Assembly (NCBI GenBank): GCA_029879765.1 | Contig: JAOUPQ010000001.1 | Span: 1-44,396, forward strand | Source of the DNA: Nitrospinota bacterium | GTDB taxonomy: Bacteria; Nitrospinota_A; UBA7883 | Direction of reading: 5' to 3' | DNA: 44,396 nucleotides | Part shown: in pieces, positions 1-17,119 of the stretch | How positions within the stretch are numbered: the first letter of the stretch is position 1 | How the letters are laid out: every line of letters begins with the position of its first letter | Notes under the pieces: generated by a model | Database searches by the model: none | What the model was told of the DNA's origin: nothing | What the model saw: the letters and a program-made list of their open reading frames with translations, nothing else | Translations under genes and position numbers: made by a program

Positions 1-1467
1 GACAGGTTCGACCGTTGCTCCTCCGCCGGTTGCCACGACAGCAGGCAGCGCGGGGATGTGCATGGCGACCAGTTCCGGGGCCGCGATTGCGACGAGTGCC
101 ATACCCTGCGAGGATGGGAACCGCCGCTATTCTCCCACAAGGATCCCAAATACACAGGCTACAAGCTCGAGGGGAAACACGCCGGGGTGGAGTGCGCCAA
201 GTGCCACCCAAAAGGCCCGTTCAGCGTGGTGAAGTATCGTCCCATAAAATACGACACCTGCATGGGACAGGGGTGCCACGATATCCCGAATCGCGGGGCG
301 ATCCATGGCAAGCAGTTCAACGGAACTAATTGCGACCAGTGCCATAATATGGAGGGATGGAAGCCTTCCGTGTTCTCCCACGATTCCCCCTCATATGGAG
401 GCTACAAACTTTATGGCAAACACCGCCCGCTGAAGTGCGAAAAATGCCATCTGTCGAGCCTGTTCGGTGTGGTGAACTATAAACCTATCAAATACCAGCT
501 GTGCGATGACTGCCACAAGGATCCGCACAAGGGCCAATTCGGTTCCACCGCCTGCGCCACCTGCCATACGGAAGACGACTGGAAGAAGCTTCAGTTCGAC
601 CATAATCGCAACAGCCGGTTCTCTCTGTATGGAAAGCATGTGGGGCCGAAGTGCGAAAAGTGCCACCTGAAGAAGGGAGTGCTGGGCGACACCATGGTGT
701 GGAAACCGGTGGATAGGGAGTGTATCGCCTGTCACGCCGATAAGGACAAACATAAAGGGGCTTTCGGCAAGCAGTGCGACCAGTGCCATACGGAAGAGAC
801 GTGGAAGACAGACCGGTTCGCGCATGAGTTGACCGGCTTCCGGCTCGAATACTCCCACCTGCGGCTTACATGCACGGCATGCCACGAGAAGAGGGACACC
901 TGGGCCGGCATCGGGGAGAACTGCCGAAACTGCCACACAGACCCGCACTTCAACCAGTTTGGAGCCCAGTGTTCCGACTGTCATAACGCCAGGGACTGGG
1001 AGCCGCGCAAGTTTAAACATGGTCTGTTCGGGTTCCGTCTGGAAGGCGCCCATCGGATAGTGGAGTGCAAGGAGTGTCACCAGAACCGGCTCTACGCCAA
1101 CACTCCCACGGACTGTATCGCCTGTCACCGGGCCGAGTTTTTCAGCCCCGGCGCCGCGGCGATCCACTCTCCGAACAATATTGACTGCCAGTTCTGCCAC
1201 AAGCCATATTCCTGGCGGCCGGCCTCGGGGCATTTCCACCAGTCCATGACTTTCAGCGGCGCCCATAAACAGATCCAGGGTCAATGCGACTACTGCCATA
1301 CAAGCAACTATGGGCTGCGGTGGCCCGGCGCCAGGACGGAGCAGGATTGTGAGTACTGCCACATGGCGGATTACAGAAAAGAGCACAGGAATTGCCCAAC
1401 GACTTGCGGCATGTGCCATAACACCAGTGATTTTGACGACGGCAAGGAGACGATTAAGTGCGACTGA
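1..1467 (+). CDS. multiheme c-type cytochrome built of tandem triheme modules; 5' end cut by window edge
   Basis: Frame +1 is open from nt 1 to TGA 1465-1467, so the ATG at 58 is probably internal. The visible part has 18 CXXCH sites: CDECH, CAKCH, CDQCH, CEKCH, CDDCH, CATCH, CEKCH, CIACH, CDQCH, CTACH, CRNCH, CSDCH, CKECH, CIACH, CQFCH, CDYCH, CEYCH, CGMCH. It also has 2 CX4CH sites (CSSAGCH nt 16-36, CMGQGCH nt 259-279). Five consecutive repeats of about 75 aa share conserved W, F-x-H, L-x-G-x-H and D-x-H-x-G-x-FG spacing. Confidence 0.9.
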   Translation, partial: DRFDRCSSAGCHDSRQRGDVHGDQFRGRDCDECHTLRGWEPPLFSHKDPKYTGYKLEGKHAGVECAKCHPKGPFSVVKYRPIKYDTCMGQGCHDIPNRGAIHGKQFNGTNCDQCHNMEGWKPSVFSHDSPSYGGYKLYGKHRPLKCEKCHLSSLFGVVNYKPIKYQLCDDCHKDPHKGQFGSTACATCHTEDDWKKLQFDHNRNSRFSLYGKHVGPKCEKCHLKKGVLGDTMVWKPVDRECIACHADKDKHKGAFGKQCDQCHTEETWKTDRFAHELTGFRLEYSHLRLTCTACHEKRDTWAGIGENCRNCHTDPHFNQFGAQCSDCHNARDWEPRKFKHGLFGFRLEGAHRIVECKECHQNRLYANTPTDCIACHRAEFFSPGAAAIHSPNNIDCQFCHKPYSWRPASGHFHQSMTFSGAHKQIQGQCDYCHTSNYGLRWPGARTEQDCEYCHMADYRKEHRNCPTTCGMCHNTSDFDDGKETIKCD

Positions 1468-2714
1468 CGCTGTTGGCGGCCATAACAGCCGCTCTATTGG
1501 CCCTATGGCCAGCCCCGGCGAACGCTGTATCTGTCAGCGGCAGAATATCCGGATCGTACTACAACCATGATGACGACATCAGCGAGCAGGACCGGAGCAT
1601 AAGCAGGATCAAGCTGCGGCTGGATGTGGACGATTTCATGCCCTACGACTCCTCTTTCCATTTAAGAACCATCACCCGCTCCGTTTCGGGGCATGACTAC
1701 AACAGCAACCTGCCCGGACAGAGGATCGAACAGGCGGAATTCGAAATGAACGGCCTGGGCGGATTCATGGATCTGCATCTTGGCAGGATGAACATAGAAG
1801 ACATCTTTTCCACCAGGGTGGATGGGGCGAATGTGGATTTCCACCTGGGAAAGACTTTCGGCTTTGGCCTGTTTGGCGGCCAGACTCCCGATCCGTTTTC
1901 CGACCAGATAAACTCCAGCTACTCCACTTATGGAGGATACCTGTTCAACCGTGGGCTGGGGAGCAGGTTTTCCCTCGGATATGTGGCCACGGCCAAGGGG
2001 GGGGAGGACTCCACATACATATCGGGTATGTACTATTCTCTATCATCCGCATCGTTCAACTGGATGGTCGACTTCCGTATGGATGAGGACAAGGCTAACA
2101 GCGAATGGCGGGTCACCGAGTCCATGTTGAACATGACATACCGGCCCAGCAAAAGGACCAAGGTAAACCTTAACTACACCGAATACCGCTCCATTCAGCT
2201 GTTCGAGTCGATGGACTACGACGCGAGTTATGACATGCAGCGTTCCACCCGGCTGTCAGGTGATATCTACATCTTGAAAAGCACGTTGCTGTATGCCCGG
2301 TTCGATGGCCGCATGCGCGACATCGACAACGGAACCGCCACCCTTGTCACCGCAGGGGTGCGCCAGGACGATATGTTCGGCTTCATGCGGATGGATTTCT
2401 CATATAACGGCATCAGCTATTTCACCACCTCTTCCAGCAGGATTAACTTCATGGTGGGGGCGGATTTAATACGGGATTTGAGCGGCGAGATAGAAATTAC
2501 ATCCATCGACACGACCCAGGAGGGGCAGAGCAACTCCATGTCCCAGTTCGTGTTTGGCGCCTCGCTGGACTGGTGGTGGAAGAATTTCTTCGTCTCGGCC
2601 ATGCTCCAGTATTCCAACGAAAAATACCTGGACGTGGACGCGATTTATACCAACAAGGCTTCGGACCACTTTTCCACCGTCGTTTACTATCTGAACCTCG
2701 GCTACAAGTTCTGA
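1458..2714 (+). CDS. outer-membrane beta-barrel protein (porin-like), translationally coupled to the cytochrome
   Basis: GTG start at 1458, with AAGGAG at 1444-1449, overlaps the cytochrome stop by 10 nt. Signal peptide MRLTLLAAITAALLALWPAPANA|V. No Cys or heme motifs. Rich in alternating aromatic/polar stretches. C-terminal beta-signal-like ...YYLNLGYKF ends in Phe. Confidence 0.65.
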   Translation: MRLTLLAAITAALLALWPAPANAVSVSGRISGSYYNHDDDISEQDRSISRIKLRLDVDDFMPYDSSFHLRTITRSVSGHDYNSNLPGQRIEQAEFEMNGLGGFMDLHLGRMNIEDIFSTRVDGANVDFHLGKTFGFGLFGGQTPDPFSDQINSSYSTYGGYLFNRGLGSRFSLGYVATAKGGEDSTYISGMYYSLSSASFNWMVDFRMDEDKANSEWRVTESMLNMTYRPSKRTKVNLNYTEYRSIQLFESMDYDASYDMQRSTRLSGDIYILKSTLLYARFDGRMRDIDNGTATLVTAGVRQDDMFGFMRMDFSYNGISYFTTSSSRINFMVGADLIRDLSGEIEITSIDTTQEGQSNSMSQFVFGASLDWWWKNFFVSAMLQYSNEKYLDVDAIYTNKASDHFSTVVYYLNLGYKF

Positions 2715-2715
2715 C

Positions 2716-2743
2716 CTGGGGGGAGGATAGCCATCCCCCCCAG
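2716..2743 (+). terminator. GC-rich hairpin downstream of the beta-barrel gene (possible terminator, no U-tract)
   Basis: CTGGGGGG (2716-2723) pairs with CCCCCCAG (2736-2743) across a 12-nt loop. No T-run follows, so the call is weak. Confidence 0.25.
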
Positions 2744-2777
2744 TGATATAATCATCCTGCAGAAAAGAAAGGCTGGC

Positions 2778-3203
2778 ATGGAACTATACCGGGCGTTCAC
2801 CATCAGGGAAAACTATAAGAACCGCGATAGCGTGGTGGTGGATTGGTTCTGTGAGAGCAGGCAGAGACCTGTGGCGCGGATAGAGGATCTGGTGGAAAGC
2901 CTGCCGGAGATGGACGATAAAGAAAGAGCCGAGCTCCAGGCCCGGCTGGATCAATTGCTCACCACCGCCGAAGTGGACGAATTGGCCCGATACATCAGGG
3001 CTACCACGGGTTTTGAAGTCAAGCGAACCAGGATAGAGCTTCCTGTATCTGATGCGAAAAAAATCCCGGATTTTTCCGGCAAGTCCTCCGTCCAGGAAGG
3101 GGAATACTTTCATATCCATGAAAGCCGCGACTATAACCTGTCTGCGTTGATCACAGGCTACGTGGACCTTTCCGAGCCTCCCAACACCATCTCCATGGGT
3201 TAG
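2778..3203 (+). CDS. hypothetical cytoplasmic protein (141 aa)
   Basis: ORF with no signal peptide or TM segment and no motif I recognise. It sits between the cytochrome/barrel pair and the convergent tpx. Confidence 0.45.
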   Translation: MELYRAFTIRENYKNRDSVVVDWFCESRQRPVARIEDLVESLPEMDDKERAELQARLDQLLTTAEVDELARYIRATTGFEVKRTRIELPVSDAKKIPDFSGKSSVQEGEYFHIHESRDYNLSALITGYVDLSEPPNTISMG

Positions 3204-3270
3204 ACCCCATATCCGGCCGGATGGCGGCTCCCCCGAGCCTGTCGCCCGGGGGCCTTGCCATCGACCCGTT

Positions 3271-3771
3271 TTATTTCAAAGCCGCCAGGGCCTTTTCGTA
3301 ATCAGGCTCCTCAGTTATATCCGGGACCTGCTGGGTGTACACCACATTGCCATCTTTCCCCACGATAACCACCGCCCTGGACAGAAGGCCGGCCAGGGGG
3401 CCATCCACCATGCGAACGCCATAGTCCTCACCGAATTTTCGCTCTCGAAGCTCGGTGGATGTATCCACGTTTTCGATCCCCTCGGCGGCGCAGAACCGTT
3501 TGTGCGCGAAAGGAAGATCCAGCGACACACACAGGCACACGGTGTCCGGCACAGAGGTTATATCCTTGTTGAACCGTCGCACTGAAGCGGCGCAGACCGC
3601 AGTGTCCACGCTGGGGAAGATATTGATCACAAGGTTTTTCCCCGCATAGTTTTTCAGGGAGACATCGGACAGGTCAGATTTTGTGAGCAAAAAATCCGGA
3701 GCCTTGGAGCCGATGGCCGGCAGGGCGCCGCAAGTGTTCACAGGATTGCCCTTTAACGTAATTTTAGACAT
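3271..3771 (-). CDS. tpx: thiol peroxidase (atypical 2-Cys peroxiredoxin Tpx)
   Basis: MSKITLKGNPV...APDF...FPSVDTAVCAAS (peroxidatic Cys) and ...HKRFCAAEG (resolving Cys). Length of 166 aa is typical of Tpx. Confidence 0.95.
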   Translation of the reverse strand: MSKITLKGNPVNTCGALPAIGSKAPDFLLTKSDLSDVSLKNYAGKNLVINIFPSVDTAVCAASVRRFNKDITSVPDTVCLCVSLDLPFAHKRFCAAEGIENVDTSTELRERKFGEDYGVRMVDGPLAGLLSRAVVIVGKDGNVVYTQQVPDITEEPDYEKALAALK

Positions 3772-4082
3772 GTTTAGCCTCTTGCCTTTAGAATGATAAT
3801 AATGCGATATATTCTACAACAAGCCACCCTCTACAAAAAATGTTATTTGCCTTCGGGTGTCTGGTTTTGGAAAAGTCCGCCAGATTCGGGAAGGTATAAA
3901 AACGCTGAAACTGGGCAGATATAATCTTACAATTGATAATGCCTTCCCCGGAATGTATTATAGAGATGGAAGCATCGGGGTGAACAGAAGAGTCGGAATT
4001 GCGGGGGTTGAATCAGAATGGACCCAGGCTGGCCCCGCGCGAATTATAACTCGGACGCCATAATGATCTATGTGCTAATGCC

Positions 4083-5093
4083 ATGAACGCCAAGCCTCTT
4101 GAGGAAATGAGCATCCTGCTTGTGGATGACTCCCGCTTCAGCCGGGATGTAATCTGTAGCGTCCTGGAAAAACACAATTTCAAAAACCTGCATTTGGCCT
4201 GTTCCTCCGCCGAGGCGATGGATTTGTTGGGCCTTTCCTCGGCAAAAAAGGATGAGCTGAAGGTGGACCTTATCCTCATGGATGTGGTGATGAAGGACAT
4301 GGATGGGATCGAGGCCACCCGGGGGATAAAGAAAAACTTTCGTCTGCGGGACGTTCCCATTGTGATGGTTTCCGGCGTTACGGAAAAAGAGAAGCTCAAG
4401 GAAGCCTTCGCCGCAGGAGCGTCGGACTATATAGAAAAGCCGGTGAACGAGGTCGAGCTGGTGGCCAGGGTGAGATCTATCCTGAGCCTGAGCCGGGAGA
4501 TATCGGAAAGAAAGGACAGGGAGCTAAAGCTTCTTAAGCTTACAAAGGAGCTGGAAGAGGCCAACAAGAAGCTGGAGATCCTCTCTTCTCTCGATGGCCT
4601 CACCGGTGTGGCGAACCGAAGGGTGTTCGATCAGACGCTTCTCAAGGAGTGGAAACGGATGGAACGGGAGTCCAAACCTATTTCCCTCATCCTTATCGAC
4701 GTAGATTATTTCAAGAACTTTAATGACACTTACGGGCATTCGTCCGGGGATGAGTGCCTGAAGAAAGTGGCCAGGGCGATCAGTTTTTCCGTCTCCCGGC
4801 CAGGAGACCTGGTGGCCAGGTATGGGGGAGAGGAATTCGTGATCGTTCTGCCGGATACCGATGGCCCCGGCGCCCAGAAAGTGGCGGTGGAGGTGATGGA
4901 TAAAATCGGAAAGATGGGAATCAGGCATGAACGCTCCGAAGTGGGAAATCGCCTCACCGTAAGCCAGGGAGTGGCCACCATGCTCCCTGGGAGCTCCGGC
5001 GGCAAATCCTCCGATCTTCTGGAATTGGCCGATAAGGCGCTGTACAGGGCCAAACACGAAGGCCGCGCCAGAGTGGTCGCTCTTAAATCATAA
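4083..5093 (+). CDS. response regulator with receiver domain and GGDEF diguanylate cyclase domain
   Basis: Receiver: ILLVDDS...[14 protein letters not shown]...PIVMVSG. A coiled-coil linker follows. The GGDEF domain has active site RYGGEEF, preceded by the I-site RxxD (RPGD). No adjacent sensor kinase. Confidence 0.93.
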
Positions 5094-5213
5094 TCTTCAA
5101 TGCGCTGGCATGTTCCTCCCGGACGGTTTCCCCAAACCTGTCAGGCGAACGGGTCAGAATTTGCATGATTTTTCAAAAGAGAGTATAGTTATGGCTATGA
5201 TGGAGCTTATATA

Positions 5214-5570
5214 ATGATGATCACGCGGATACTGGTGTTGGTGATATTCGCTCTGTCGGTGGCCCTGCCCGCCGGAGCGGGGGCTTCGCCCCATTCCCCC
5301 AGCGTCTCCCTGGGAGCTCCAGATTGCGAAAGCCAGCATGCCCAGGGTCCGGATGATATGCAACATCATGGCGCTCCCGCCACCCCTTCTGGTGATTGTG
5401 GAGACTGTGCACAGATGGTTTTCTGCTGCGCCCATGTCTCCATGACCTGTGACGGCTCGATACTGGGCAAAAGCCATGTCCTGGGCGCATTCATCATCAT
5501 CGGGCAGATTCAGCGTTTCAAAGCCAAATCCCTGTCCTCCAATCTATACCATCCCCCTAAAGCCCGGTAA
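5214..5570 (+). CDS. small secreted Cys/His-rich protein upstream of the cus operon (putative metal-binding accessory, DUF2946/CzcI-like by eye)
   Basis: GGAG sits 8 nt upstream of the ATG. Signal peptide MMITRILVLVIFALSVALPAGAGA. The mature part has CESQH, DMQHH, GDCGDC, FCCAH and a C-terminal HPPK. Located directly 5' of cusCBA. Confidence 0.55.
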   Translation: MMITRILVLVIFALSVALPAGAGASPHSPSVSLGAPDCESQHAQGPDDMQHHGAPATPSGDCGDCAQMVFCCAHVSMTCDGSILGKSHVLGAFIIIGQIQRFKAKSLSSNLYHPPKAR

Positions 5571-5613
5571 GGGCTCGCCCTGCAAGGGCTCGCCCTGGAA
5601 GGGCATGCCCGCA
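5569..5613. repeat. three tandem 15-bp units with palindromic GGGC-NN-GCCC core, followed by a T-run
   Basis: AAGGGCTCGCCCTGC (5569-5583), AAGGGCTCGCCCTGG (5584-5598), AAGGGCATGCCCGCA (5599-5613). TTATTTTTT follows at 5622-5630. Lies in the gap between the small Cys/His gene and cusC. Confidence 0.7.
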
Positions 5614-5782
5614 GCGGCAGGTTATTTTTTGGGCATTTCTCGCTTGCGGTGTGGCCACTGTGGTCCAGGGCCTCGGGCGCCGCGTTGAAAAACCCAGTAA
5701 AAGAGCGATCTTCCGTATCAACCAAAACGCATCGGAAAGTTTTGCGCAGGTTTACTCTCCGGCCAGGGAAACAGGCTGGACA

Positions 5783-7072
5783 ATGGATGGTAGGAAAATG
5801 AGGAACAGGAAGCATATATCAGTCATCATATTCAGTTTTGTGATGGTGGCCCTGGCCCCTGGGGCGCGGGCGGATGGAAACTGGTGGCCCTCTCTGCGGG
5901 CGGAGCTGTTGGAGCAAAATCAGGGGATCGCCGCCGCCAGGAAAAAGGTGGAGGCTCTTTCCCATATCCCCGAGTCAAAGATGGCCCTGGCCGATCCTGT
6001 GGTCACTGCGGGTTTGATGAGTGTGCCGGTGGACACCTTTGCCATGGACAAGGCGGATATGACCCAGAAAATAGTCGGTGTCCGCCAGGATGTTCCCGCA
6101 GGCTCCATGCGCTCCGCCCAGGCCACCCTGGCTCGGGTGGATGTGCTGGAGGCGCAGGCCATGTTTTCCAAAGACGTGGCGACGGCGGCCATGGAACTGA
6201 AGATGGCGGTCAACGAGATAGTATTCATAAACAGGGCGCTGTCCATCCTCAATGAAACCGACATGCTGTTGGACAACTTCGTCAGGACCAGCATGGCCAA
6301 GTACTCATCGGGGAAAGGGATCCAGGCCAATGTGATCCAGGCCCAGCTGGAGAAGAGCAAGCTCGTGCGCAAAAGGCTCAAATTCGACGAGCAGCTTGAA
6401 CTGGGCAGGGTGAGGATCAACCGGCTGCTGAACCGGGGGGAGGAAAAGGCCTTTCTGGCGCCGAAGGAATACATAACCCCCGCTTACCCGGTGGATACCT
6501 CCTCGCTGTGGAAAATGGCCCAGTCCTACTCCCCCATGCTTCTGATGGCCAGGGCCAGGGTGAAAAAAGCGGAAGCCAGCCTGGAGGCGGCGCGCGCATC
6601 CACGGCGCCCATGTGGATGTTTTCCGCCACCTATGGCCAGAGGGATGACAAGCAGGATATGGCCCGGCCGGACTTTATTTCCGTCACCGCCGGATTCACC
6701 ATTCCTTTATATAAATCACGAAAGCAGGAGATGGTGATAGCCGGAGCGTCGGTGGCGGTGACGGGACAGGCCGATGCGGCGCGAGACACAGCCAGGGAGG
6801 TCCAGGCGCGGATCGCCTCCGCCGTGACCAGCCTGGAACAGGAAGCCAGGCTCATAGACCTGTACCAGACAGGACTTATCCCCCAGGCGACGCTGGCGCT
6901 GGAGAGCGCCATGTCTTCCTATCAGCTGGACAAGGCAGATTTTCTGACGCTGCTGTCCAACCAGATAAACCTGCTGGATATGCAGATGGAACTGGAGAGC
7001 GCAAGAATGCGCAAAGCAAACCTATACGCCAAGCTGGACGCCCAGATCGGGACTGACGGAGTGGAGGAATGA
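5783..7072 (+). CDS. cusC: outer membrane efflux protein, TolC/CusC/CzcC family
   Basis: The tracked ORF starts at 5651, but the first 44 aa have no signal peptide. ATG 5783 (or 5798) gives MDGRKMRNRKHISVIIFSFVMVALAPGARA, a normal signal. The rest is two-repeat, coiled-coil-rich OMF-like sequence. The stop overlaps the cusB ATG (ATGA at 7069-7072). Confidence 0.82.
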   Translation: MDGRKMRNRKHISVIIFSFVMVALAPGARADGNWWPSLRAELLEQNQGIAAARKKVEALSHIPESKMALADPVVTAGLMSVPVDTFAMDKADMTQKIVGVRQDVPAGSMRSAQATLARVDVLEAQAMFSKDVATAAMELKMAVNEIVFINRALSILNETDMLLDNFVRTSMAKYSSGKGIQANVIQAQLEKSKLVRKRLKFDEQLELGRVRINRLLNRGEEKAFLAPKEYITPAYPVDTSSLWKMAQSYSPMLLMARARVKKAEASLEAARASTAPMWMFSATYGQRDDKQDMARPDFISVTAGFTIPLYKSRKQEMVIAGASVAVTGQADAARDTAREVQARIASAVTSLEQEARLIDLYQTGLIPQATLALESAMSSYQLDKADFLTLLSNQINLLDMQMELESARMRKANLYAKLDAQIGTDGVEE

Positions 7073-8610
7073 ATATGGAAAAAAACAAGGACGTTAATGC
7101 TGGTGGGGTGAACTACACCCTGAAATTCTGGATCTGGCTCATCATGGCCCTAATGCTGGGAGCAGGATTCTCTTTTCGCCACCAGATTGTGGGCGCTTTT
7201 TCTGGCTCGGAGGAATCGAGGATGGAACAGGCTACCCTGATGGAAGGGAAAGACGCCAAACAAAGAGTAGTCAAATATTGGCGAGCGCCCATGAATCCCG
7301 CGGAGATATACGACAGGCCTGGCAAGTCCAAGATGGGCATGGACCTGGTGCCGGTATACGAGGACAACGAGGAAGGGGGGATCATCAAGATCAATCCCGC
7401 CGTGGTGCAGAACATCGGGGTGAAGACGGCCGTGGCGCAAAGGACTGATATCGCCAGCTCCTTTCGGACCATCGGTGTGGTCACATACGACGAGACCACA
7501 ATGTCCAAGATCCAGAGCAAGGTTCAAGGATGGGTGGAGAAGCTGTATGTGAACAGTACAGGAGAGGCTATAAGCAAGGACACCATCTTGCTGGAATTGT
7601 TCAGCCCGGATCTGGTGGCCACCCAGGAGGAGTTTCTGCTGGCCCTGGCCTATCGCGACACATTGCGCAAAGGGAGCCATAAGGGGCTTGCCAAAAGCGG
7701 CGATGAGCTTTTGGCCGCCGCCAGAAGGCGCCTGATGCTCTTCGACGTTCCCGCCCACCAGATCGCCGAGCTGGAAAAAAATAAGCAGGTAAAAAAGACC
7801 CTCCATATCCACTCTTCGGCTGAAGGGGTGGTGATAAAGAAAAATGTCATCGAGGGGATGCAGGTGATGCCGGGCCAGACCCTGTACGAGGTGGCGGATC
7901 TTTCCAATGTGTGGGTGAACGTGAATGTGTATGAAGCGGAGATACCTCTGGTGGCGGTGGGGCAGGAGGCCTTGTTGACCCTCACCGCCGCGCCGGGGAA
8001 GGTCTTCCGCGGAAAGATCACTTATGTGTATCCCTTCATAGACCAGAAAAGCAGGACCGTCACCGTGCGGCTGGAATTCAAAAATCCAGACCAGACCCTC
8101 AAGCCGGATATGTACGGCAATGTGGTTCTGCAGGCGGACAAGACAAAGCAGGCTGTCACCATTCCTGCCCAGGCGGTGATACGCACAGGGGAGCGGGCCA
8201 TAGTGTTCATCGACCTGGGGGGAGGAAGGTTCGCCCCCAGGGAAGTGAAGTATGGAACGGAGAACGACGGGAAGATGGAGATTCTCTCCGGCGTGGATGC
8301 CGGGGAAAGAGTTGTGACTTCCGCCCAGTTCCTGCTCGATTCCGAGTCGAAACTGCGGGAAGTGGTGAACAAAATGTCCTCGCCATCGGAGGAGCAACAG
8401 AAAACCGGCGCAGACGTCATGGACCATGCGGGCATGGACCATGCGGGCATGGAATCTGGGGAGATGGATTATTCGAAGCTTAAGGATCCAGTGGTTGATA
8501 ATTCAAAAATGGACCATACGAATATGGATCACGGCGCGATGGATCACGGCGCGATGGATCACGGCGCGATGGATCGCGGCACTATGGATCACTCGAAGAT
8601 GGGTCATTAA
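7069..8610 (+). CDS. cusB: efflux RND periplasmic adaptor (membrane fusion protein), CusB/CzcB family, with C-terminal MDHxx repeat tail
   Basis: N-terminal TM anchor. Lipoyl/beta-barrel MFP motifs are present (IQSKVQGWVEKLYV..., LYEVADLSNVWVNVNVYE, FRGKITYVYPFIDQKSRTVTVRLEF). Positioned between the OMF and RND pump genes. The last ~65 aa are Met/Asp/His pentapeptide repeats. Confidence 0.9.
   Translation: MNMEKNKDVNAGGVNYTLKFWIWLIMALMLGAGFSFRHQIVGAFSGSEESRMEQATLMEGKDAKQRVVKYWRAPMNPAEIYDRPGKSKMGMDLVPVYEDNEEGGIIKINPAVVQNIGVKTAVAQRTDIASSFRTIGVVTYDETTMSKIQSKVQGWVEKLYVNSTGEAISKDTILLELFSPDLVATQEEFLLALAYRDTLRKGSHKGLAKSGDELLAAARRRLMLFDVPAHQIAELEKNKQVKKTLHIHSSAEGVVIKKNVIEGMQVMPGQTLYEVADLSNVWVNVNVYEAEIPLVAVGQEALLTLTAAPGKVFRGKITYVYPFIDQKSRTVTVRLEFKNPDQTLKPDMYGNVVLQADKTKQAVTIPAQAVIRTGERAIVFIDLGGGRFAPREVKYGTENDGKMEILSGVDAGERVVTSAQFLLDSESKLREVVNKMSSPSEEQQKTGADVMDHAGMDHAGMESGEMDYSKLKDPVVDNSKMDHTNMDHGAMDHGAMDHGAMDRGTMDHSKMGH
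8419..8607 (+). repeat. in-frame tandem 15-bp repeats encoding (M-D-H-x-x)n at the 3' end of cusB
   Basis: ATGGACCATGCGGGC occurs twice perfectly (8419-8448). ATGGATCACGGCGCG occurs three times perfectly (8524-8568). Degenerate copies flank these. Peptide: MDHAG MDHAG MESGE MDYSK ... MDHTN MDHGA MDHGA MDHGA MDRGT MDHSK MGH. Confidence 0.95.
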
Positions 8611-8628
8611 AGGGCCGGGAGGAGAGAA

Positions 8629-11600
8629 ATGTTAAGTTGGATTATTGAAGCTTCGGCGAGGAACAGGTTTATCGTGATCCTGGGCGCTGCCTTCATCGCC
8701 CTGGGTGGATACTATGCCACGATGAACATTTCGCTGGACGCGATCCCGGACCTCAGCGACGTCCAGGTTATCGTATATACCGAATACAAGGGGCAGACCC
8801 CCAAGGTGGTGGAGGAGCAGGTGACCTATCCCATCACCACGGCCATGCTCTCGGTGCCATACGCCAAGACGGTGCGGGGATATTCTTTTTTTGGAATCTC
8901 CTTTGTCTATGTGATTTTCGAGGATGGCGCCGACCTTTATTGGGCTCGCAGCCGGGTGCTGGAGTATCTGAATTTCGCCTCCAAAAGGCTCCCTCCGGGA
9001 GTCACCCCAAACCTGGGGCCGGACGCCACCGGAGTCGGCTGGATATACCAGTACGCGCTGGTGGACAGGACAAACCGGCGAGACCTCTCGGAGTTGCGTT
9101 CCATCCAGGACTGGTACATGCGATATGAATTGCAGAGGGTCTCCGGCGTCTCGGAAGTGGCCAGCGTGGGAGGCTTCGTCAAGCAATACCAGGTGGAGGT
9201 GGATCCGAACAAGCTGGTCGCATTTGAAATCACCATGCCGCAGATAATATCGGCCATCCAGCGAGGGAACAGCGATGTGGACGGCAGACTCATCGAAATG
9301 GCCGAGACGGAGTATATGGTGCGGGGGTTTGGCTATGTGAAGAATGTGGAGGATCTGAAGAATATCGCATTGAAGGTGGATGCCAACGGCGCCCCGGTGC
9401 TGCTCAAGGATCTGGCCAACATTTCCATCGGTCCGGAATTGCGAAGAGGGCTGGTGGAGCTGGACGGCGAGGGAGAGGTGGCCGGAGGTGTGGTGATCAT
9501 GCGCTTTGGCGGCAACGCTTTGGCCACCATAGAGCGGGTCAAGGCGAAGATCGAAGATCTGAAGAAGGGTTTGCCGGAAGGGGTGGAGATCGTCACCACA
9601 TACGACCGTTCCGGGTTGATCCATCGCGCGGTGGCTTTCCTCACCGAGAAGCTTTTTGAAGAGAGCGTGATAGTGGCGCTTGTGTGCATGGTGTTCCTCC
9701 TCCACTTTCGCTCCGCTCTTGTGGCGATTCTCACCCTGCCCTTGGGAATCATGATTTCCATGCTGGTAATGTATTCCCTGGGAGTCTCCGCCAATATCAT
9801 GTCGCTGGGAGGGATAGCCATAGCCATCGGGGCGATGGTGGACGCCTCCGTGGTGATGATAGAAAACGCCCACAAGCGTCTGGAGCGCGACGGCGGAAAG
9901 CTGCCCCATACACAGATCGTGCTGGAGGCGGCCAAGGAGGTGGGGCCGGCGCTGTTTTTCAGCCTGTTGATAATCACCCTTTCATTTCTGCCGGTGTTCG
10001 CTTTGGAAGCCCAGGAGGGGAGGCTGTTCAAGCCCCTGGCGTTCACCAAGACTTTCGCCATGGCCGGCGCGGCGTTTTTATCCATCACCATAACCCCGGT
10101 GCTGATGATCTACCTGGTTCGGGGCGCCATCGTCCCGGAACGGCAGAATCCTATTAACAGGTTCCTGATATGGGTGGTCCGGCCTGTGGCCCGGCTTTCC
10201 CTGCGGCACAAGGGGGTGACCCTTCTTCTTGTGGCGGCGCTGGCTGGAGCGTCCATGCTCTCCCTGAACAGGCTCGGCAGCGAGTTCATGCCGTTGCTGA
10301 ATGAGGGGGATATCCTGTATATGCCCACCACCTTGCCGGGGATATCGATCACCAAGGCAAAGGAGGTTTTGCAACAGACCAACAAGATCCTGCGACAGTT
10401 TCCAGAGGTGGAACGGGTGTTCGGCAAGATCGGCCGGGCGGAGACCGCCACCGACCCTGCCCCTCTTAGCATGATAGAAACGGTGGTGATGCTCAAACCC
10501 CGGGAACAGTGGCGGCCGGGGATGGACGAGAAAATCCTGACCGATCAGATGGACAAAGCCATCCAGTTCCCCGGGCTGACCAACGCCTGGACCATGCCGA
10601 TCAAAACCAGAATCGACATGCTCTCCACAGGGATCAAGACCCCTGTGGGGGTGAAGGTGGCCGGGCCGGACTTGCAGGAGCTGGACCGGGTGGCGGCCAG
10701 CATAGAGGGGGCGCTGCGGAAGGTGAAAGGAACCCGCAGCGTCATAGCGGAGCGCGCCTGGGGAGGGAACTATCTGGATTTTGATATCGATCGGGAAAAG
10801 ATCGCACGGTATGGATTGAGCATCGCCGATGTGCAGGATGTGATCAAAAGCGCCATCGGTGGGATGAATGTGAGCTACACCGTGGAGGGGTTGGAGCGAT
10901 ACCCGATCAACGTGCGGTATGGCCGGGAGCTGCGGGATGACCTGGGGAAACTGAAAAGAACCCTGGTTCTCACCAAAACTGGCCAGCAGGTGGCGATCAG
11001 CCAATTGGCCCAGATTCGCCTCTCCAAGGGCCCCATGGTGGTGAAGACAGAAAACAGCCGTCCCAACGTGTGGGTGTTCGTGGATATTGAAGGGGTGGAT
11101 GTGGGGACATATGTCAAGGAAGCCCGGGCGGTGGTGGACCGGGAGGTGGCCGTGCCTGTCGGGGTGACCATCGCATGGAGCGGGCAGTATGAGTATATGC
11201 AGCGGGTCAAGGCGCGGCTGGCGCTGGTGGCGCCTGTGACTCTGGGAATAATCTTCACTCTGCTGTTCCTCTATTTCAGGAAGGTCACAGAAAGCCTCCT
11301 GGTGATGCTCACGGCTCCCTTGTCGGCGGTGGGTGGCCTGATATATCTCGACATGATGGACTACGACCTGTCGGTGGCGGTGGGGGTGGGGTTTATCGCG
11401 CTGATGGGAGTGGCGGCGGAGATCGGGGTGTTGATCCTGGTGTATATCGGCCATGCCATCGAGAAACGGAAGAAGGAAGGGAAATGGCGGGACAGGGAAG
11501 ACGTGCGCGCCGCGGTTCTGGACGGGGTGTCCGAGCGAGTGCGGCCGATCATGATGACCGTATGCGCCATCCTGGGGGGGCTTGGGCCGATAATGTATGG

Positions 11601-11778
11601 CCATGGGGCCGGGGCGGAGGTGATGAGACGTATCGCCACGCCGATGGTGGGGGGGATGGTGAGCGTGACCATTTTATCCCTGCTGGCCCTCCCGGCGCTC
11701 TATTGTCTGGTCCATGAGCTCCGGATGAAATATGGAATTAAAGAGGAGTACTCCATGGATGGAGGAAAAAGTGTATAA
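8629..11778 (+). CDS. cusA: heavy-metal efflux RND transporter, CusA-type (Cu(I)/Ag(I))
   Basis: 1049 aa. The N-terminus AIPDLSDVQVIVYTEYKGQTPKVVEEQVTYPITTAMLSVP...VRGYSFFGISFVYVIFEDGADLYWARSRVLEYLN is very close to E. coli CusA as I remember it. The sequence contexts of the CusA three-methionine Cu site are all present (GDILYMPTT, APLSMIETV, RIDMLSTGIK). Confidence 0.96.
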   Translation: MLSWIIEASARNRFIVILGAAFIALGGYYATMNISLDAIPDLSDVQVIVYTEYKGQTPKVVEEQVTYPITTAMLSVPYAKTVRGYSFFGISFVYVIFEDGADLYWARSRVLEYLNFASKRLPPGVTPNLGPDATGVGWIYQYALVDRTNRRDLSELRSIQDWYMRYELQRVSGVSEVASVGGFVKQYQVEVDPNKLVAFEITMPQIISAIQRGNSDVDGRLIEMAETEYMVRGFGYVKNVEDLKNIALKVDANGAPVLLKDLANISIGPELRRGLVELDGEGEVAGGVVIMRFGGNALATIERVKAKIEDLKKGLPEGVEIVTTYDRSGLIHRAVAFLTEKLFEESVIVALVCMVFLLHFRSALVAILTLPLGIMISMLVMYSLGVSANIMSLGGIAIAIGAMVDASVVMIENAHKRLERDGGKLPHTQIVLEAAKEVGPALFFSLLIITLSFLPVFALEAQEGRLFKPLAFTKTFAMAGAAFLSITITPVLMIYLVRGAIVPERQNPINRFLIWVVRPVARLSLRHKGVTLLLVAALAGASMLSLNRLGSEFMPLLNEGDILYMPTTLPGISITKAKEVLQQTNKILRQFPEVERVFGKIGRAETATDPAPLSMIETVVMLKPREQWRPGMDEKILTDQMDKAIQFPGLTNAWTMPIKTRIDMLSTGIKTPVGVKVAGPDLQELDRVAASIEGALRKVKGTRSVIAERAWGGNYLDFDIDREKIARYGLSIADVQDVIKSAIGGMNVSYTVEGLERYPINVRYGRELRDDLGKLKRTLVLTKTGQQVAISQLAQIRLSKGPMVVKTENSRPNVWVFVDIEGVDVGTYVKEARAVVDREVAVPVGVTIAWSGQYEYMQRVKARLALVAPVTLGIIFTLLFLYFRKVTESLLVMLTAPLSAVGGLIYLDMMDYDLSVAVGVGFIALMGVAAEIGVLILVYIGHAIEKRKKEGKWRDREDVRAAVLDGVSERVRPIMMTVCAILGGLGPIMYGHGAGAEVMRRIATPMVGGMVSVTILSLLALPALYCLVHELRMKYGIKEEYSMDGGKSV

Positions 11779-11870
11779 ATAAGAATCCTTCCCGAAGGAT
11801 CGATCATCAACATCTTTGATATGTGAAAAATCCCCTTATGGGGATAACCCATGGCAATCAAGAGGGATAT

Positions 11871-12227
11871 ATGAAATTTGCTGTACAGGTGCTGGAGGCG
11901 CCATATAACAACCAGGCTTCCGACACGGCATACCACTTCATCAAGGCCGCCCTGGACAAGGGGCACACCATCGTTCGCGTGTTTTTTTATCACAACGGTG
12001 TTGTAAATGCGAACAACTCCGCCGAGCCACCCAATGACGACAGGAATATCTACAAGCGCTGGACAGAGCTGGGAAAGGAAAAGGGGATAGATATCGTGGC
12101 CTGCATCGCCGCCTCCAAGCGGCGGGGAATCAAAGAGGGGCAGATCGTCGAGGGAACCCGGATCTCCGGCCTGGGGCAACTGGCGGATATGACCATAGAG
12201 GCCGACAGGCTGATAACCTTTGGATGA
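11871..12227 (+). CDS. tusD: sulfurtransferase complex subunit TusD / DsrE family
   Basis: The tracked ORF starts at GTG 11823. ATG 11871 has AGAGGGA upstream and gives MKFAVQVLEAPY.... From that start the conserved active Cys in IDIVACIAAS is residue 78, as in TusD/DsrE. Confidence 0.88.
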   Translation: MKFAVQVLEAPYNNQASDTAYHFIKAALDKGHTIVRVFFYHNGVVNANNSAEPPNDDRNIYKRWTELGKEKGIDIVACIAASKRRGIKEGQIVEGTRISGLGQLADMTIEADRLITFG

Positions 12228-12234
12228 GGGGCAG

Positions 12235-12624
12235 ATGATGGACGAAGAGATGGAAGTCAACGAGAACGTAAAGAAGGTAATGTTCGTGATGCGCAAGGCG
12301 CCTCATGGGAGCATATACAGCTATGAGGGCTTGGAGACGGTGCTGATCACCGCCGCCTATGAGCAGGACATGACCATGGTGTTCGTCGGTGATGGCGTGT
12401 TCGCCCTGGTGAAGGGGCAGGACACCACCGATATTGGGATAAAGGGGTTCATCAAGACCTACGGCGCCCTGGAGCATTATGACGTGGAGAAGATTTATGT
12501 GGACCGCGTGTCGATGGAGGAGAGGGGGCTGACTCCCGATGATTTCGCCATCGACGTGGAAGTGAAGGAGGCGGAGGAAATCGCCGCCCTGATGGAAGAA
12601 CAACACGCCACCATCCCTTATTGA
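12235..12624 (+). CDS. tusC: sulfurtransferase complex subunit TusC / DsrF family
   Basis: KKVMFVMRKAPHGSIYSYEGLETVLITAAYEQDMTMVFVGDGVFAL is typical of TusC/DsrF. Start is uncertain (TTG 12220, ATG 12235/12238/12250). Overlaps or abuts the tusD stop at 12225-12227. Confidence 0.82.
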   Translation: MMDEEMEVNENVKKVMFVMRKAPHGSIYSYEGLETVLITAAYEQDMTMVFVGDGVFALVKGQDTTDIGIKGFIKTYGALEHYDVEKIYVDRVSMEERGLTPDDFAIDVEVKEAEEIAALMEEQHATIPY

Positions 12625-12657
12625 TTTCGGGATATAAACGATACAAGGAGCCTGAAA

Positions 12658-12951
12658 ATGTTGCATATGGTCAATAAATCCCCATTCTCCAACAGCGCCC
12701 TGGAGGAGGCGGCCAGGATCGCCTCGAAAGGATCGCCAATTTTGCTCATAGAGGACGGAGTCTACGCCGCCAGGGCGGGGACCTCGTTCGCGCCAAAGCT
12801 TGCGGATATTCTTAAAGATCACCCTGTTTATGTCCTGACGCCGGACCTGAAAGCCCGAGCCGTGGATAAATTGGTGGAAGGAGTGGAGCAGGTGGATTAT
12901 TCCGGATTTGTGGATCTGGTGGAGAAGGACAAGGTTCATTCCTGGGTGTAG
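12658..12951 (+). CDS. tusB: sulfurtransferase complex subunit TusB / DsrH family
   Basis: MLHMVNKSPF...SPILLIEDGVYAA...YVLTPDLKARAV...VDYSGFVDLV matches the TusB/DsrH pattern. Third gene of the D-C-B order. The protein contains no Cys. Confidence 0.8.
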   Translation: MLHMVNKSPFSNSALEEAARIASKGSPILLIEDGVYAARAGTSFAPKLADILKDHPVYVLTPDLKARAVDKLVEGVEQVDYSGFVDLVEKDKVHSWV

Positions 12952-13298
12952 ATTGCCCAAAAAACTCAGTTAATGCGATGGTGCTGTCCGCCGCATCTCC
13001 CATGGGGCTATCGTTTGCCGATCTCATGGCTATATCCGGAATAACGCAGGAAACAGCCAGAGACAATTTGCTCGCGATTCTATAAACCCCCAGCCTGTTC
13101 TTTTCTATGAGTATGTTCAATCAAGCCGATGCCTCCGACGAAGAATCATGGAGAGTCGGCTTTTGAAGGGGGATTAGACAGAATCGAGAGCTTATAGAGC
13201 GTATAAACAAGGGGTATCAGCAAATATTGAATACTTCGGATTCAGTAGGGTGTTTGTGGATAGTGTTATAAAAGTTTGCAATATCCCATAGCTTTGGA

Positions 13299-13325
13299 AT
13301 TTGAATAGAAGCCTGTTATTCAAAT
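13299..13325. promoter_or_regulatory. 9-bp perfect inverted repeat (candidate operator) abutting the -35 element
   Basis: ATTTGAATA (13299-13307), a 9-nt spacer, then TATTCAAAT (13317-13325). The heptamer TTGAATA also occurs at 13227-13233, and TTGAATG forms the -35. Confidence 0.45.
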
Positions 13326-13331
13326 ACTTGA

Positions 13332-13359
13332 TTGAATGTTTCCCCGAAAGTGCTATAAT
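13332..13359 (+). promoter_or_regulatory. sigma70-type promoter with extended -10 for the polysaccharide-export locus
   Basis: -35 TTGAAT (13332-13337), a 16-nt spacer ending in TGC, then -10 TATAAT (13354-13359). This gives the extended form TGcTATAAT. It lies about 55 nt upstream of ATG 13416, which has AAGGGAG at 13403-13409. Confidence 0.55.
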
Positions 13360-13415
13360 GATCCAATTAAGTCAATTACGTTTAGAAATATAACGTTTTT
13401 GCAAGGGAGCATTTT

Positions 13416-15128
13416 ATGAGCGCCTGCAGTCGATTCTTACATCTCCTGTTTATTCCATCAGTCTTTTTTTTCGGATTATTCTCCACTCCAGCGGAAGCGA
13501 ACATGGTGGCTGAAGCCACATTTGTGGAAGGGAGAACTCTGGTTTTTCCATTGGATTCCATAGAAGATTTGGTTATCCAAAAGGGCCACAGGTTCGCGGA
13601 GGGGGATAGGGTTGTGACTATGGAAGGCGCCAAGGTGAAAATCAGGTTCGAGGATGGGAGCACCACCATACTGGAGCCCAAGACACAGATGTTCATCCGG
13701 GGCATGCGAAAAACGGAGAACGGTTCCACAATATTTTCATTCCGGCTTATAGAGGGCAAGATGCGATCGCTGGTGGCCAAACTGAGCGGGAAGGATTCCC
13801 GTTTTGAATACGTGACGAATACTTCGATTTGCGGTGTGGCCGGGGCCGATGTGGGCGCGGAGGTGGCAGACGGAAAGACCAGGTTTTATATGGGATCGAA
13901 AGGGGTGGGGCTGGTTTATCCCAACAAGGAGGGGATTGACCTGCTCAAGGAGGCGGATCTTCTCACTCCGAATGAATCGGTGAACCTGGCCGGGGGCAAT
14001 CTGTTTTTCCCTGTTTTTGCCCAGAGGGGTGAGGAAGGAGTGGGATATTGGCTGGATCGGCCTGGCATGGAAGATTACCGAGCCTTGAAAAACTCCACTT
14101 TCTGGGGCCAAACCGGGTTTCTGGACAGAGACGAAACTGGAAAGACCATCGGGGAAAATGGCGTGGGGGCCACTGGCTCCGCATGGGAAAGCTCGCTCAA
14201 GGCGCGGCGAAACGCCACTTGGGTAAAAAACAGCGATAGCAGGATGTTGTTGGCCACCAATTTTGCAGGGGATATTACACTCAGCCCTGTGGTCGCAGCA
14301 GGCTCGATAAATCAATTTTCCCAACAACTCCGTCTGCTTTCCACAGATGCGTCGGGGGGTGATATCCCAAACGCCTCAATCCTTGCGGCCTCGATCGCCG
14401 GCCGGGATATGGATACCGCCGCCATGAAGGAACTGGCGTCCACCCATAGCTCCGACGCTCCTCTCATCGTCGCTGTGGTTATGAATAGCGCTGCCAGCCA
14501 AAACGCCGGGGCCATCGCCGGGGCCATCACATCAGGCGCCCCTGGGGCCGCGGCGAAAGTAGCCTCGGTTCTTGCCACAATGGCGCCGGATCAAGGAGTC
14601 GCCATCGCGCTTCAGGCGGCCACCAACTCCCCAGACCAGGTTGCCCAGATCGTCGCCAATATCGCAGCGATAAATTCCAGTCTTGTCGTGGATCTGGTCG
14701 CGCAGATTGGCGCCGTATATCCTGAAAGATTGATGGATATTGCAGGCTCGGTGGCCGCGCTTAATCCAGATCTGGCGGCTCAGATACTCAACGCTGTGCA
14801 GCAGATCGATCCTGCAGTCACGGCCACGGATTTGGTAAACGCCGCCACGGCAGCGGCGAACATCGCCAGCATTGCGAAGAATGAAAAGGCTTCCGCTGGA
14901 AATGTTGTGATTCAGGGGCAAGCCGCCGCCCAAAACGCAGCCAACAATTACAAGCCGACCACTAACTCGGTGAACCAGAATGCGGAAAACAAAGCTGCTA
15001 AATCTGCTGAAAATGGCAACGGCAATGGCAATGGCAAAGGAAATGGTAAAGGAAATGGAAATGGCAATACTCCATCGGGCGACGCGCCCCCCACGGAGAA
15101 TCCTGGACAGTCAATTTCAAAGGGATAG
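13416..15128 (+). CDS. secreted protein with FecR-like N-terminal domain, Ala-rich helical repeats and C-terminal (G-N/K)n tail
   Basis: Signal peptide MSACSRFLHLLFIPSVFFFGLFSTPAEA. FecR-like segment: GDRVVTMEGAKVKIRFEDGSTTILEPKTQMFI. The C-terminal half has repeated A-x-x-P-D-x-x-A-x-I-x motifs. It ends in NGNGNGNGKGNGKGNGNGN. Confidence 0.55.
   Translation: MSACSRFLHLLFIPSVFFFGLFSTPAEANMVAEATFVEGRTLVFPLDSIEDLVIQKGHRFAEGDRVVTMEGAKVKIRFEDGSTTILEPKTQMFIRGMRKTENGSTIFSFRLIEGKMRSLVAKLSGKDSRFEYVTNTSICGVAGADVGAEVADGKTRFYMGSKGVGLVYPNKEGIDLLKEADLLTPNESVNLAGGNLFFPVFAQRGEEGVGYWLDRPGMEDYRALKNSTFWGQTGFLDRDETGKTIGENGVGATGSAWESSLKARRNATWVKNSDSRMLLATNFAGDITLSPVVAAGSINQFSQQLRLLSTDASGGDIPNASILAASIAGRDMDTAAMKELASTHSSDAPLIVAVVMNSAASQNAGAIAGAITSGAPGAAAKVASVLATMAPDQGVAIALQAATNSPDQVAQIVANIAAINSSLVVDLVAQIGAVYPERLMDIAGSVAALNPDLAAQILNAVQQIDPAVTATDLVNAATAAANIASIAKNEKASAGNVVIQGQAAAQNAANNYKPTTNSVNQNAENKAAKSAENGNGNGNGKGNGKGNGNGNTPSGDAPPTENPGQSISKG
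15012..15068 (+). repeat. in-frame hexanucleotide (AAYGGN/AAAGGA) microsatellite encoding Asn/Lys-Gly repeats
   Basis: AATGGC AACGGC AATGGC AATGGC AAAGGA AATGGT AAAGGA AATGGA AATGGC AAT. Confidence 0.9.
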
Positions 15129-15231
15129 TCATAGGCAATGTGTGAATATAAATCGCAGGAAATAGCAGCGCTGGATGATGTTTCGCATAATGTGTGGAAA
15201 ACAAGGACAAAAGAATATCTGTTGAGGAAAC

Positions 15232-16452: not shown

Positions 16453-16497
16453 CACTTATAGGCTGCATAACCCGTTTAGAAATAGTATAATAAAAAG

Positions 16498-17070: not shown

Positions 17071-17119
17071 ACTGTTATGGAAAGATCGCCAGTGTAAGGA
17101 TGGCTGATAAATATTTATT

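Follow-up and report, generated by a model that had tools for sequence, protein, structure and literature searches.

We analyzed the 44,396-nucleotide (nt) stretch of a Nitrospinota contig of which the first lines are given above (hereafter the window). At its 5′ edge, the gene for a multiheme c-type cytochrome, truncated by the start of the contig, runs into and overlaps the gene for an outer-membrane β-barrel. The features that define this gene pair are:

1..1470, + strand: 3′ part of the c-type cytochrome gene (488 codons plus stop), encoding heme module 6 in part and modules 7-12 whole
985..1464, + strand: modules 11 and 12 (the last two and the most divergent) plus the conserved tail ...CPTTCGMCHNTSDFDDGKETIKCD, delimited by module alignment
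1444..1449, + strand: Shine-Dalgarno sequence AAGGAG, 8 nt before the barrel's GTG and within the cytochrome coding sequence
1458..2714, + strand: gene for a 418-amino-acid (aa) outer-membrane β-barrel (GTG 1458, TGA 2712-2714), identified from the open reading frame (ORF), its homologues and an AlphaFold model
1458..1526, + strand: barrel signal peptide MRLTLLAAITAALLALWPAPANA, then V, with an A-x-A cleavage site and no lipobox

Reading frame 1 is free of stops from nt 1 until the TGA at 1468-1470, and the resulting 488-aa product carries 18 CXXCH and 2 CX4CH motifs (the latter at aa 6 and aa 87), 42 Cys and 40 His. When its residues were shuffled 5000 times, CXXCH occurred 0.28 times on average and three times at most, and Pfam Cytochrome_C7 matches the sequence at 4.4e-20 over five stretches. 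The initial annotation of this DNA had made the same motif count and taken the open frame to mean that the protein is larger than shown; both statements stand. On the near-identical contig L001 (L numbers designate the loci compared here), the full-length gene at 7269-10010 encodes 913 aa with 34 CXXCH and 2 CX4CH motifs, that is, 36 hemes, and matches Cytochrome_C7 (PF14522) at 1.4e-37 (127.7 bits against a cut-off of 24.8) over seven stretches. The heme spacing repeats as ~33/18-22/18-24 residues, giving 12 c7-type triheme modules at 25.4 aa per heme. The protein is thus a triheme polymer and not an MtrA-type decaheme, as had been proposed (the MtrA/DmsE decaheme model TIGR03508 gives it 30.8 bits, with the cut-off at 192.2), but the layout first described for the window has to be corrected: instead of five triheme modules and a four-heme tail, the window encodes the two last hemes of one module followed by six complete triheme modules, and the supposed four-heme tail resolves on the module alignment into two divergent triheme modules, 11 and 12. 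A phmmer search with the cytochrome against all PDB chains, the GSU1996 structure included, found no match at E <= 0.01.

In the alignment of the twelve modules, two His ahead of heme 1 and a third between hemes 2 and 3 are shared. The 913-aa protein holds 75 His for its 36 hemes, enough for bis-His ligation at every site, and its hemes are probably ligated in this way. The protein starts with a cleavable leader of the signal-peptidase-I type; a Cys in this leader does not form a lipobox, because it is not conserved in the relatives at L009 and L011. Modules 3-5 share 68-72% mutual identity, which points to recent tandem duplication. Modules 11 and 12 show 20-31% identity to the other modules, the highest value being 41% (module 11 against module 7), and the tail that follows them holds an extra Cys pair (CPTTC...KCD) at aa 465 (1393-1395) and aa 487 (1459-1461). 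These are the sole Cys outside heme motifs; both are kept in L009, L011, L012, L015, L020, L021 and L022, and a disulfide between them could hold the C-terminal tail of the cytochrome in place.

The barrel ORF overlaps the cytochrome gene by 13 nt. Its product contains neither Cys nor a heme motif and ends in a Y-x-F β-signal (...LNLGYKF), in which G415, Y416 and F418 are invariant or nearly so among homologues. These features had been pointed out at the outset, together with the signal peptide, the GTG start at 1458 in the last codons of the cytochrome gene and the AAGGAG 8 nt before it, and all can be read from the sequence. An AlphaFold model, built from a 32-sequence alignment drawn from the exhaustive search described below, has 22 strands (predicted local distance difference test, pLDDT, 88; predicted template modeling score, pTM, 0.75), longest loops of 12-15 residues, and neither a plug nor a constriction loop; the signal peptide forms an N-terminal helix (residues 2-16) and strand 1 begins at residue 25. 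An earlier model, based on seven close homologues only, was distrusted (pLDDT 60). A barrel geometry calculation (n = 22, shear number ~24) gives a C-alpha radius of ~20 Å, and published model diameters of 38 Å for Cyc2 (~17 strands) and 50 Å for MtrB (26 strands) bracket this 22-strand value. A lumen of that width without a plug needs an occupant, and according to the model a c7-type heme domain should fit.

We found no family match for the barrel in Pfam and NCBIfam scans, and none in a profile search of all PDB sequences. In a Foldseek search of the PDB, the model matched only generic barrels, the best being the 24-strand FimD/PapC usher pores (template modeling score, TM, ~0.5; ~10% identity), and no porin-cytochrome entry was among the 50 matches listed. 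A Pfam scan of 32 homologues returned only scattered weak porin matches (Porin_4 at 3e-6 in 2 of 32, BBP2_2 at 0.007 in 3 of 32). Kinship with the BBP2_2 porin that the window itself encodes (15232-16449) was considered and rejected, as hhalign gave it a probability of 0.4%. The barrel family is small: a word-indexed search retrieved just seven homologues (55-100% identity), a word-indexed profile search with the 32-sequence profile added just three proteins, and an exhaustive HMMER search of 1.84 billion cluster representatives gave 83 relatives at E <= 1e-3, 37 of them at E <= 1e-10. The named relatives come from metagenome-assembled genomes (MAGs) of Nitrospinota, 'Deltaproteobacteria' and Nitrospirota, and a pattern scan of GTDB species representatives (10 closer sequences) found relatives in Nitrospinota only.

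The exact barrel protein occurs on eight public contigs, from two NCBI 'Nitrospinota bacterium' MAGs, three ENA assemblies and three Logan assemblies. These near-identical contigs match the window at 99.1-99.9% identity across up to 12.7 kb, and the 5′ side missing from the window was taken from them, chiefly from L001. Two further multiheme cytochrome genes lie there:

L001 5184-6080, upstream of the window: 298-aa putative lipoprotein cytochrome with 10 CXXCH, lipobox ...MSAGC
L001 6328-7080, upstream of the window: 250-aa putative lipoprotein cytochrome with 8 CXXCH, lipobox ...LVSGC

The two proteins are paralogous and have Gly/Ser/Asn/Pro-rich linkers, and their genes lie directly upstream of the 36-heme gene; no respiratory enzyme is encoded in the upstream part of L001. 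Lipobox cytochromes are also encoded upstream in L009 (10 and 8 hemes) and L021 (12 hemes), with fragments in L012 and L028. The tails of the 10- and 8-heme proteins are His/Asp/Gly-rich (...DGDGHGDGHGDGHDD and ...GADGHGGGGHGD) and could bind metal cations at the cell surface.

The pairing of cytochrome and barrel was then examined at every barrel locus that could be fetched, the focal locus being counted among the 17 distinct loci. In 16 of the 17, at barrel identities of 24-100%, a multiheme cytochrome (20-77 hemes where complete) ends at or overlaps the barrel start; the seventeenth, L024, is uninformative, with merely 115 nt of coding sequence before the barrel. In most loci the two genes share 1-13 nt: L001, L009, L011, L015, L020, L021 and L022 have an overlap of 10-13 nt, L014 one of 4 nt and L025 one of 1 nt. 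Sorted by barrel identity, the cytochromes of the relatives are:

55-74% identity: 36 hemes each in L009/L027, L011/L028 and L012; a fragment in L029
30-40% identity: 30 hemes plus a 12-heme lipoprotein cytochrome in L021; 20 hemes in L020/L032; 42 in L033; 30 in L035
30-40% identity, cytochrome fragments: at least 13 hemes in L015, at least 16 in L022
<=28% identity, complete cytochromes: 42 hemes in L014/L013; 77 upstream and 97 downstream of the barrel in L025
<=28% identity, cytochrome fragments: at least 11 hemes in L016/L017, at least 4 in L023, at least 7 in L026

The differences in length fall on the N-terminal side. By BLASTP, the 20-heme protein aligns to residues 425-913 and the 30-heme protein to residues 203-913 of the 36-heme protein, so that the similarity is anchored at the C terminus. 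The last 25 residues of the cytochrome (CP..C..CH.T..F......CD) are kept in the Nitrospinota-like clade (the motif is conserved in L009, L011, L012, L015, L020 and L021), and the distant clade has another conserved tail. Since the tails differ by clade, the C-terminal end of the cytochrome co-varies with the barrel, leaving the number of N-terminal modules free to change. Docking of the C-terminal modules in the barrel, with the remaining modules forming a periplasmic wire of variable length, would produce this pattern, which makes modules 11 and 12 with the tail a candidate barrel-docking or barrel-inserted segment. Judging from the gene overlap, cytochrome and barrel may be co-translated in a set stoichiometry.

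The most extreme cluster, L025, encodes a 1931-aa, 77-heme cytochrome (2206-8001), the barrel (8001-10673) and a 2449-aa, 97-heme cytochrome (11318-18667). Its barrel is fused to N-terminal SPOR (peptidoglycan-binding) domains, and fusions to SPOR domains occur in some of the distant barrel relatives.

The MAG names of the near-identical contigs (8_1_July_SF_Bin48 and similar) match site 8.1 of a San Francisco Bay sediment study, in which Nitrospinota with rDsr-type sulfur oxidation were reported. The window carries genes of this kind downstream of the barrel:

11823-12960, + strand: dsrE, dsrF and dsrH, ~9 kb downstream of the barrel

In L009 and L012, too, dsrEFH lie close to the cytochrome and barrel genes, and this arrangement is consistent with the sulfur oxidation reported for the San Francisco Bay Nitrospinota. 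The host is an uncultured Nitrospinota of estuarine sediment and probably oxidizes sulfur.

Based on the heme modules, the predicted fold of the barrel, the conserved pairing, the conservation anchored at the cytochrome C terminus and the neighboring lipoprotein cytochromes, we consider it likely that this locus makes up the distal end of a gene cluster for a three-component electron conduit across the outer membrane, similar to the porin-cytochrome (Pcc) systems. In this model, Sec would export the 913-aa cytochrome, whose twelve c7-type modules would form a long heme wire in the periplasm; the overlapping genes would ensure that cytochrome and barrel are made together, and we infer that the conserved, divergent C-terminal modules sit inside the 22-strand, plug-less barrel. 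Either or both of the 10- and 8-heme lipoprotein cytochromes would be exposed at the surface and exchange electrons with the terminal heme, so that electrons would cross the outer membrane to or from a partner that is insoluble or lies outside the cell, for instance extracellular sulfur, Fe(III)/Mn(IV) oxides, and Fe(II) or sulfide minerals. We lean slightly toward an outward flow, serving a sulfur oxidizer in suboxic sediment as a respiratory sink, because of the low-potential c7/c3-type hemes and the dsrEFH neighborhood. On the other side, bis-His decahemes such as MtoA also serve Fe(II) oxidation, and Nitrospinota MAGs elsewhere carry Cyc2 or MtoA-like genes.

The initial annotation had proposed a candidate porin-cytochrome conduit and named four findings that would count against it, and its interpretation is supported here by the outcome of each. 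The barrel belongs to no unrelated characterized family in the Pfam, NCBIfam and PDB sequence searches; its 22 predicted strands should leave room for a c7-type heme domain; its pairing with a cytochrome is kept in the relatives; and the partners encoded upstream are lipoprotein multiheme cytochromes rather than respiratory subunits.

The functionally closest known system is the Geobacter-type Pcc (OmaB-OmbB-OmcB, ExtABCD; Liu 2014, Shi 2014), with which the present cluster shares a compact barrel and two kinds of multiheme cytochrome, one periplasmic and encoded next to the barrel, the other a lipoprotein. It differs from Pcc in the periplasmic partner, which has 36 hemes in c7 modules here (20-77 in relatives) as against 5-14, in the gene order, cytochrome then barrel, and in the host, a member of the Nitrospinota. 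The compactness of the barrel had been taken to indicate a different architecture. This argument does not stand: Pcc porins are predicted to have 18-22 strands, and their family is defined by context, with porin identities down to 8% (Shi 2014). The barrel described here has no family assignment, no NCBIfam model having reached its cut-off.

Like MtrCAB, MtoAB and PioAB, the cluster has the cytochrome gene before the barrel gene, an order that the initial annotation had likened to that of mtrAB and pioAB; the two genes are tightly linked here by the 13-nt overlap. The cluster also fits the concept of a barrel-sheathed heme wire with a surface lipoprotein cytochrome. Unlike the MtrB-type barrels, which have 26-28 strands and Pfam/TIGR families of their own, this barrel has 22 strands and matches no such family, even with the 32 homologues included; its partner has 36 c7-type hemes, unlike the MtrA/DmsE decahemes, and no MtrC/OmcA-family match was found in the cluster. 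As in Cyc2, which has been reported in Nitrospinota MAGs, an outer-membrane barrel would be dedicated to a heme protein, but Cyc2 is one polypeptide with one heme and ~17 strands, and the barrel here has neither Cys nor a heme motif. Tandem c7 triheme modules with ~25 aa per heme are also found in the GSU1996-type 'nanowire' dodecahemes of Geobacter, which have 4 modules and are soluble in the periplasm, unlike the present protein with its 12 modules and a specialized C-terminal end coupled to a barrel. GSU1996-type proteins can have up to 9 modules. PCC3 and PCC4, described in Proteobacteria and Planctomycetes, likewise place a heme-dense, repetitive cytochrome beside a porin (~21 or more hemes, against 36 here; He et al. 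2017). PCC3, however, has a porin of up to 42 transmembrane segments and an extracellular cytochrome with a median of 34 hemes, compared with 22 strands and 8 or 10 hemes in this cluster.

A further link to PCC3/PCC4 appears in the distant barrel relatives. A ~300-aa five-helix protein with two WX3HX13H motifs is encoded beside the barrel in L014 (4019-4999), L025 (1245-2171) and L033 (8679-9590, - strand), the last with a weak Ferric_reduct match. The same signature was reported for the inner-membrane proteins of PCC3/PCC4, which were likened to ferric-reductase and cytochrome-b domains (He et al. 2017). A scan for two such motifs found none in the focal clade (window, flanking loci and 10 kb upstream in L001), so that the focal cluster differs in this respect from its distant relatives. 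That an inner-membrane protein is common to the wider barrel family and PCC3/PCC4 suggests a common pool of parts. In L015, a cytochrome b561-type gene directly follows the barrel; oxidoreductases with Fer4 and FAD/NAD(P) domains are encoded near the barrel in L013 (3736-5052, - strand), L026 (2173-3489) and L033 (7326-8666, - strand), and L016 has a shorter Pyr_redox protein without a Fer4 match. Judging from their domains, the five-helix protein and the ferredoxin-domain oxidoreductase resemble a split NOX/FRE-type module, through which reducing power from the cytoplasm could cross the inner membrane independently of quinones.

Several observations weigh against an electron conduit at the focal locus. 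No inner-membrane partner linked to quinol or NAD(P)H is encoded in the 44-kb window or, judging from L001, in the ~10 kb before it. The lipoprotein status of the two upstream cytochromes is read from motifs only and their surface exposure is assumed; terminator-like hairpins follow both of their genes, which may be separate transcription units. Finally, the barrel relatives all come from uncultured MAGs, and they are annotated 'hypothetical protein' wherever the source supplies a name.

The conduit could extend further, in that the single cytochrome polypeptide might act as a length-tunable heme cable leading from the inner membrane through the periplasm and a dedicated 22-strand barrel to the cell surface. 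We put this forward tentatively, as a possibility with somewhat less than even chances. The variation of module number by lineage (20, 30, 36, 42 and 77 hemes), with the putative barrel-docking C-terminal end fixed, is in line with it. GSU1996 measures ~12 nm for its 4 modules, from which twelve c7 modules would reach ~36 nm if similarly extended; the periplasm is ~17 nm wide. If such cables exist, soluble periplasmic shuttles would be unneeded, the new barrel family would be dedicated to them, and sulfur-oxidizing Nitrospinota of the rDsr type would possess an unreported extracellular electron-transfer metabolism.

Three rival explanations are less easily reconciled with the lipoprotein cytochromes, a barrel without a plug and its conserved pairing. 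First, the 36-heme cytochrome might be a periplasmic wire or capacitor only, storing electrons in the periplasm or relaying them there, perhaps between a complex of the inner membrane and sulfur or nitrogen enzymes of the periplasm, with the barrel just anchoring it and no heme exposed outside. This is how the c7 polymers of the GSU1996 type are placed in Desulfuromonadia, where they are periplasmic and not found in porin operons, and no inner-membrane or catalytic partner encoded nearby fixes a pathway. We nevertheless judge it unlikely: a 22-strand barrel without a plug would be costly and hazardous as an anchor, the genes directly upstream encode lipoprotein multiheme cytochromes whose Gly/Ser/Asn/Pro linkers are flexible, the pairing is kept across very divergent lineages, and the second, 97-heme protein of L025 would far exceed the width of the periplasm.

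It seems quite improbable, too, that the barrel is an usher-like secretion or assembly channel that places giant cytochromes on the surface and is not their permanent sheath. The fold matches to the 24-strand translocation domains of FimD and PapC, which would suit such a function, are generic (~10% identity, root-mean-square deviation 8-12 Å), and ordinary porins score equally; moreover, the barrel has neither the usher plug nor the N- and C-terminal periplasmic domains. The 77- and 97-heme cytochromes of some clusters must be at least partly extracellular if extended, as surface delivery would predict, but it is the C-terminal end of the cytochrome that is conserved, and the gene overlap and fixed order fit a stoichiometric complex better. 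A chance adjacency or loose operon with an ordinary diffusion porin or substrate channel, to which the weak Porin_4 and BBP2_2 matches of a few distant relatives might point, is very improbable and nearly refuted by synteny, given that a cytochrome precedes the barrel in 16 of 17 loci, with the overlap of stop and start kept at 24-100% identity, and that the focal barrel lacks a porin-family match and a constriction loop and is unrelated to the BBP2_2 porin of the window.

Porin-cytochrome clusters of divergent sequence are now known from many phyla, and the size of the barrel is not new, since 18-22 strands are already the norm in Pcc. What is new here is the barrel family, as judged from the Pfam, NCBIfam and PDB searches, the c7 polymer as the partner of a barrel, and the phylum for such a conduit; in the literature we found no description of this barrel family, of a barrel-coupled c7 polymer or of such a conduit in Nitrospinota. 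The publications found on Nitrospinota/Nitrospinae that touch on porin-cytochrome systems or extracellular electron transfer report only Cyc2/MtoA matches and generic multiheme counts, and the most detailed comparative genomics paper on the phylum mentions neither multiheme cytochromes nor porins nor extracellular electron transfer. Nitrospinota are treated mainly as marine nitrite oxidizers. A conserved conduit near dsrEFH in sediment members would imply electron exchange with minerals or other extracellular partners, and such exchange would connect the cycles of sulfur, iron and manganese in estuarine sediments. As the barrel family has no Pfam or NCBIfam model, tools that rely on known families, such as FeGenie, are unlikely to detect these clusters, and a barrel profile would give a new marker specific to conduits with giant cytochromes. 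A dock that is fixed at the C terminus, together with c7 modules that vary in number, would also amount to a natural experiment on what determines heme-wire length.

Two further sequence elements lie between the barrel gene and the next gene:

2716..2743, + strand: G/C-rich hairpin CTGGGGGG...CCCCCCAG right after the barrel stop (-18.4 kcal/mol, z = -1.1 against shuffled sequences)
2744-2752, + strand: extended -10-like element TGATATAAT, between the hairpin and the next gene

The hairpin is no better than expected from shuffled sequence, and a consensus terminator scan made no call there, a T-run being absent; it possibly marks the end of the operon. The next gene (2778-3203, + strand), with TGATATAAT in front, encodes a 141-aa protein that has no signal peptide and no Pfam or NCBIfam family. 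A protein of 141-144 aa follows the barrel in the window, L009, L011 and L012, and not in the more distant clusters. A thiol-peroxidase-like redoxin (3271-3771, - strand) and a response-regulator/GGDEF protein (4083-5093, + strand) are also encoded beside the cluster in L009 and L012; L011 lacks both and has other genes after its 144-aa protein.

The other ~40 kb of the window contain no further cytochrome or respiratory genes. They encode Cus-type RND efflux, dsrEFH, an exopolysaccharide (EPS) export cluster, argS, lptA/B, rpoN, ptsI, murJ, nusA and trpA. The Cus/Czc-type RND efflux operon (OEP, MFP, ACR_tran) occupies 5651-11778 (+ strand), and its membrane-fusion protein (7069-8610) ends in a long Met/His/Asp repeat, MDHAGMDHAGM...MDHGAMDHGAMDHGAMDRGTMDHSKMGH, which is probably a metal-binding tail. 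Just upstream of this operon, at 5214-5570 (+ strand), lies a gene for a 118-aa secreted Cys/His-rich protein without a family match, which may be a periplasmic metal-binding protein; L001-L004 have a 118-aa gene call at the equivalent position. Two SPOR-domain proteins are encoded at 27477-28217 and 29991-30839 (+ strand), one of them fused to an LptA-like domain.

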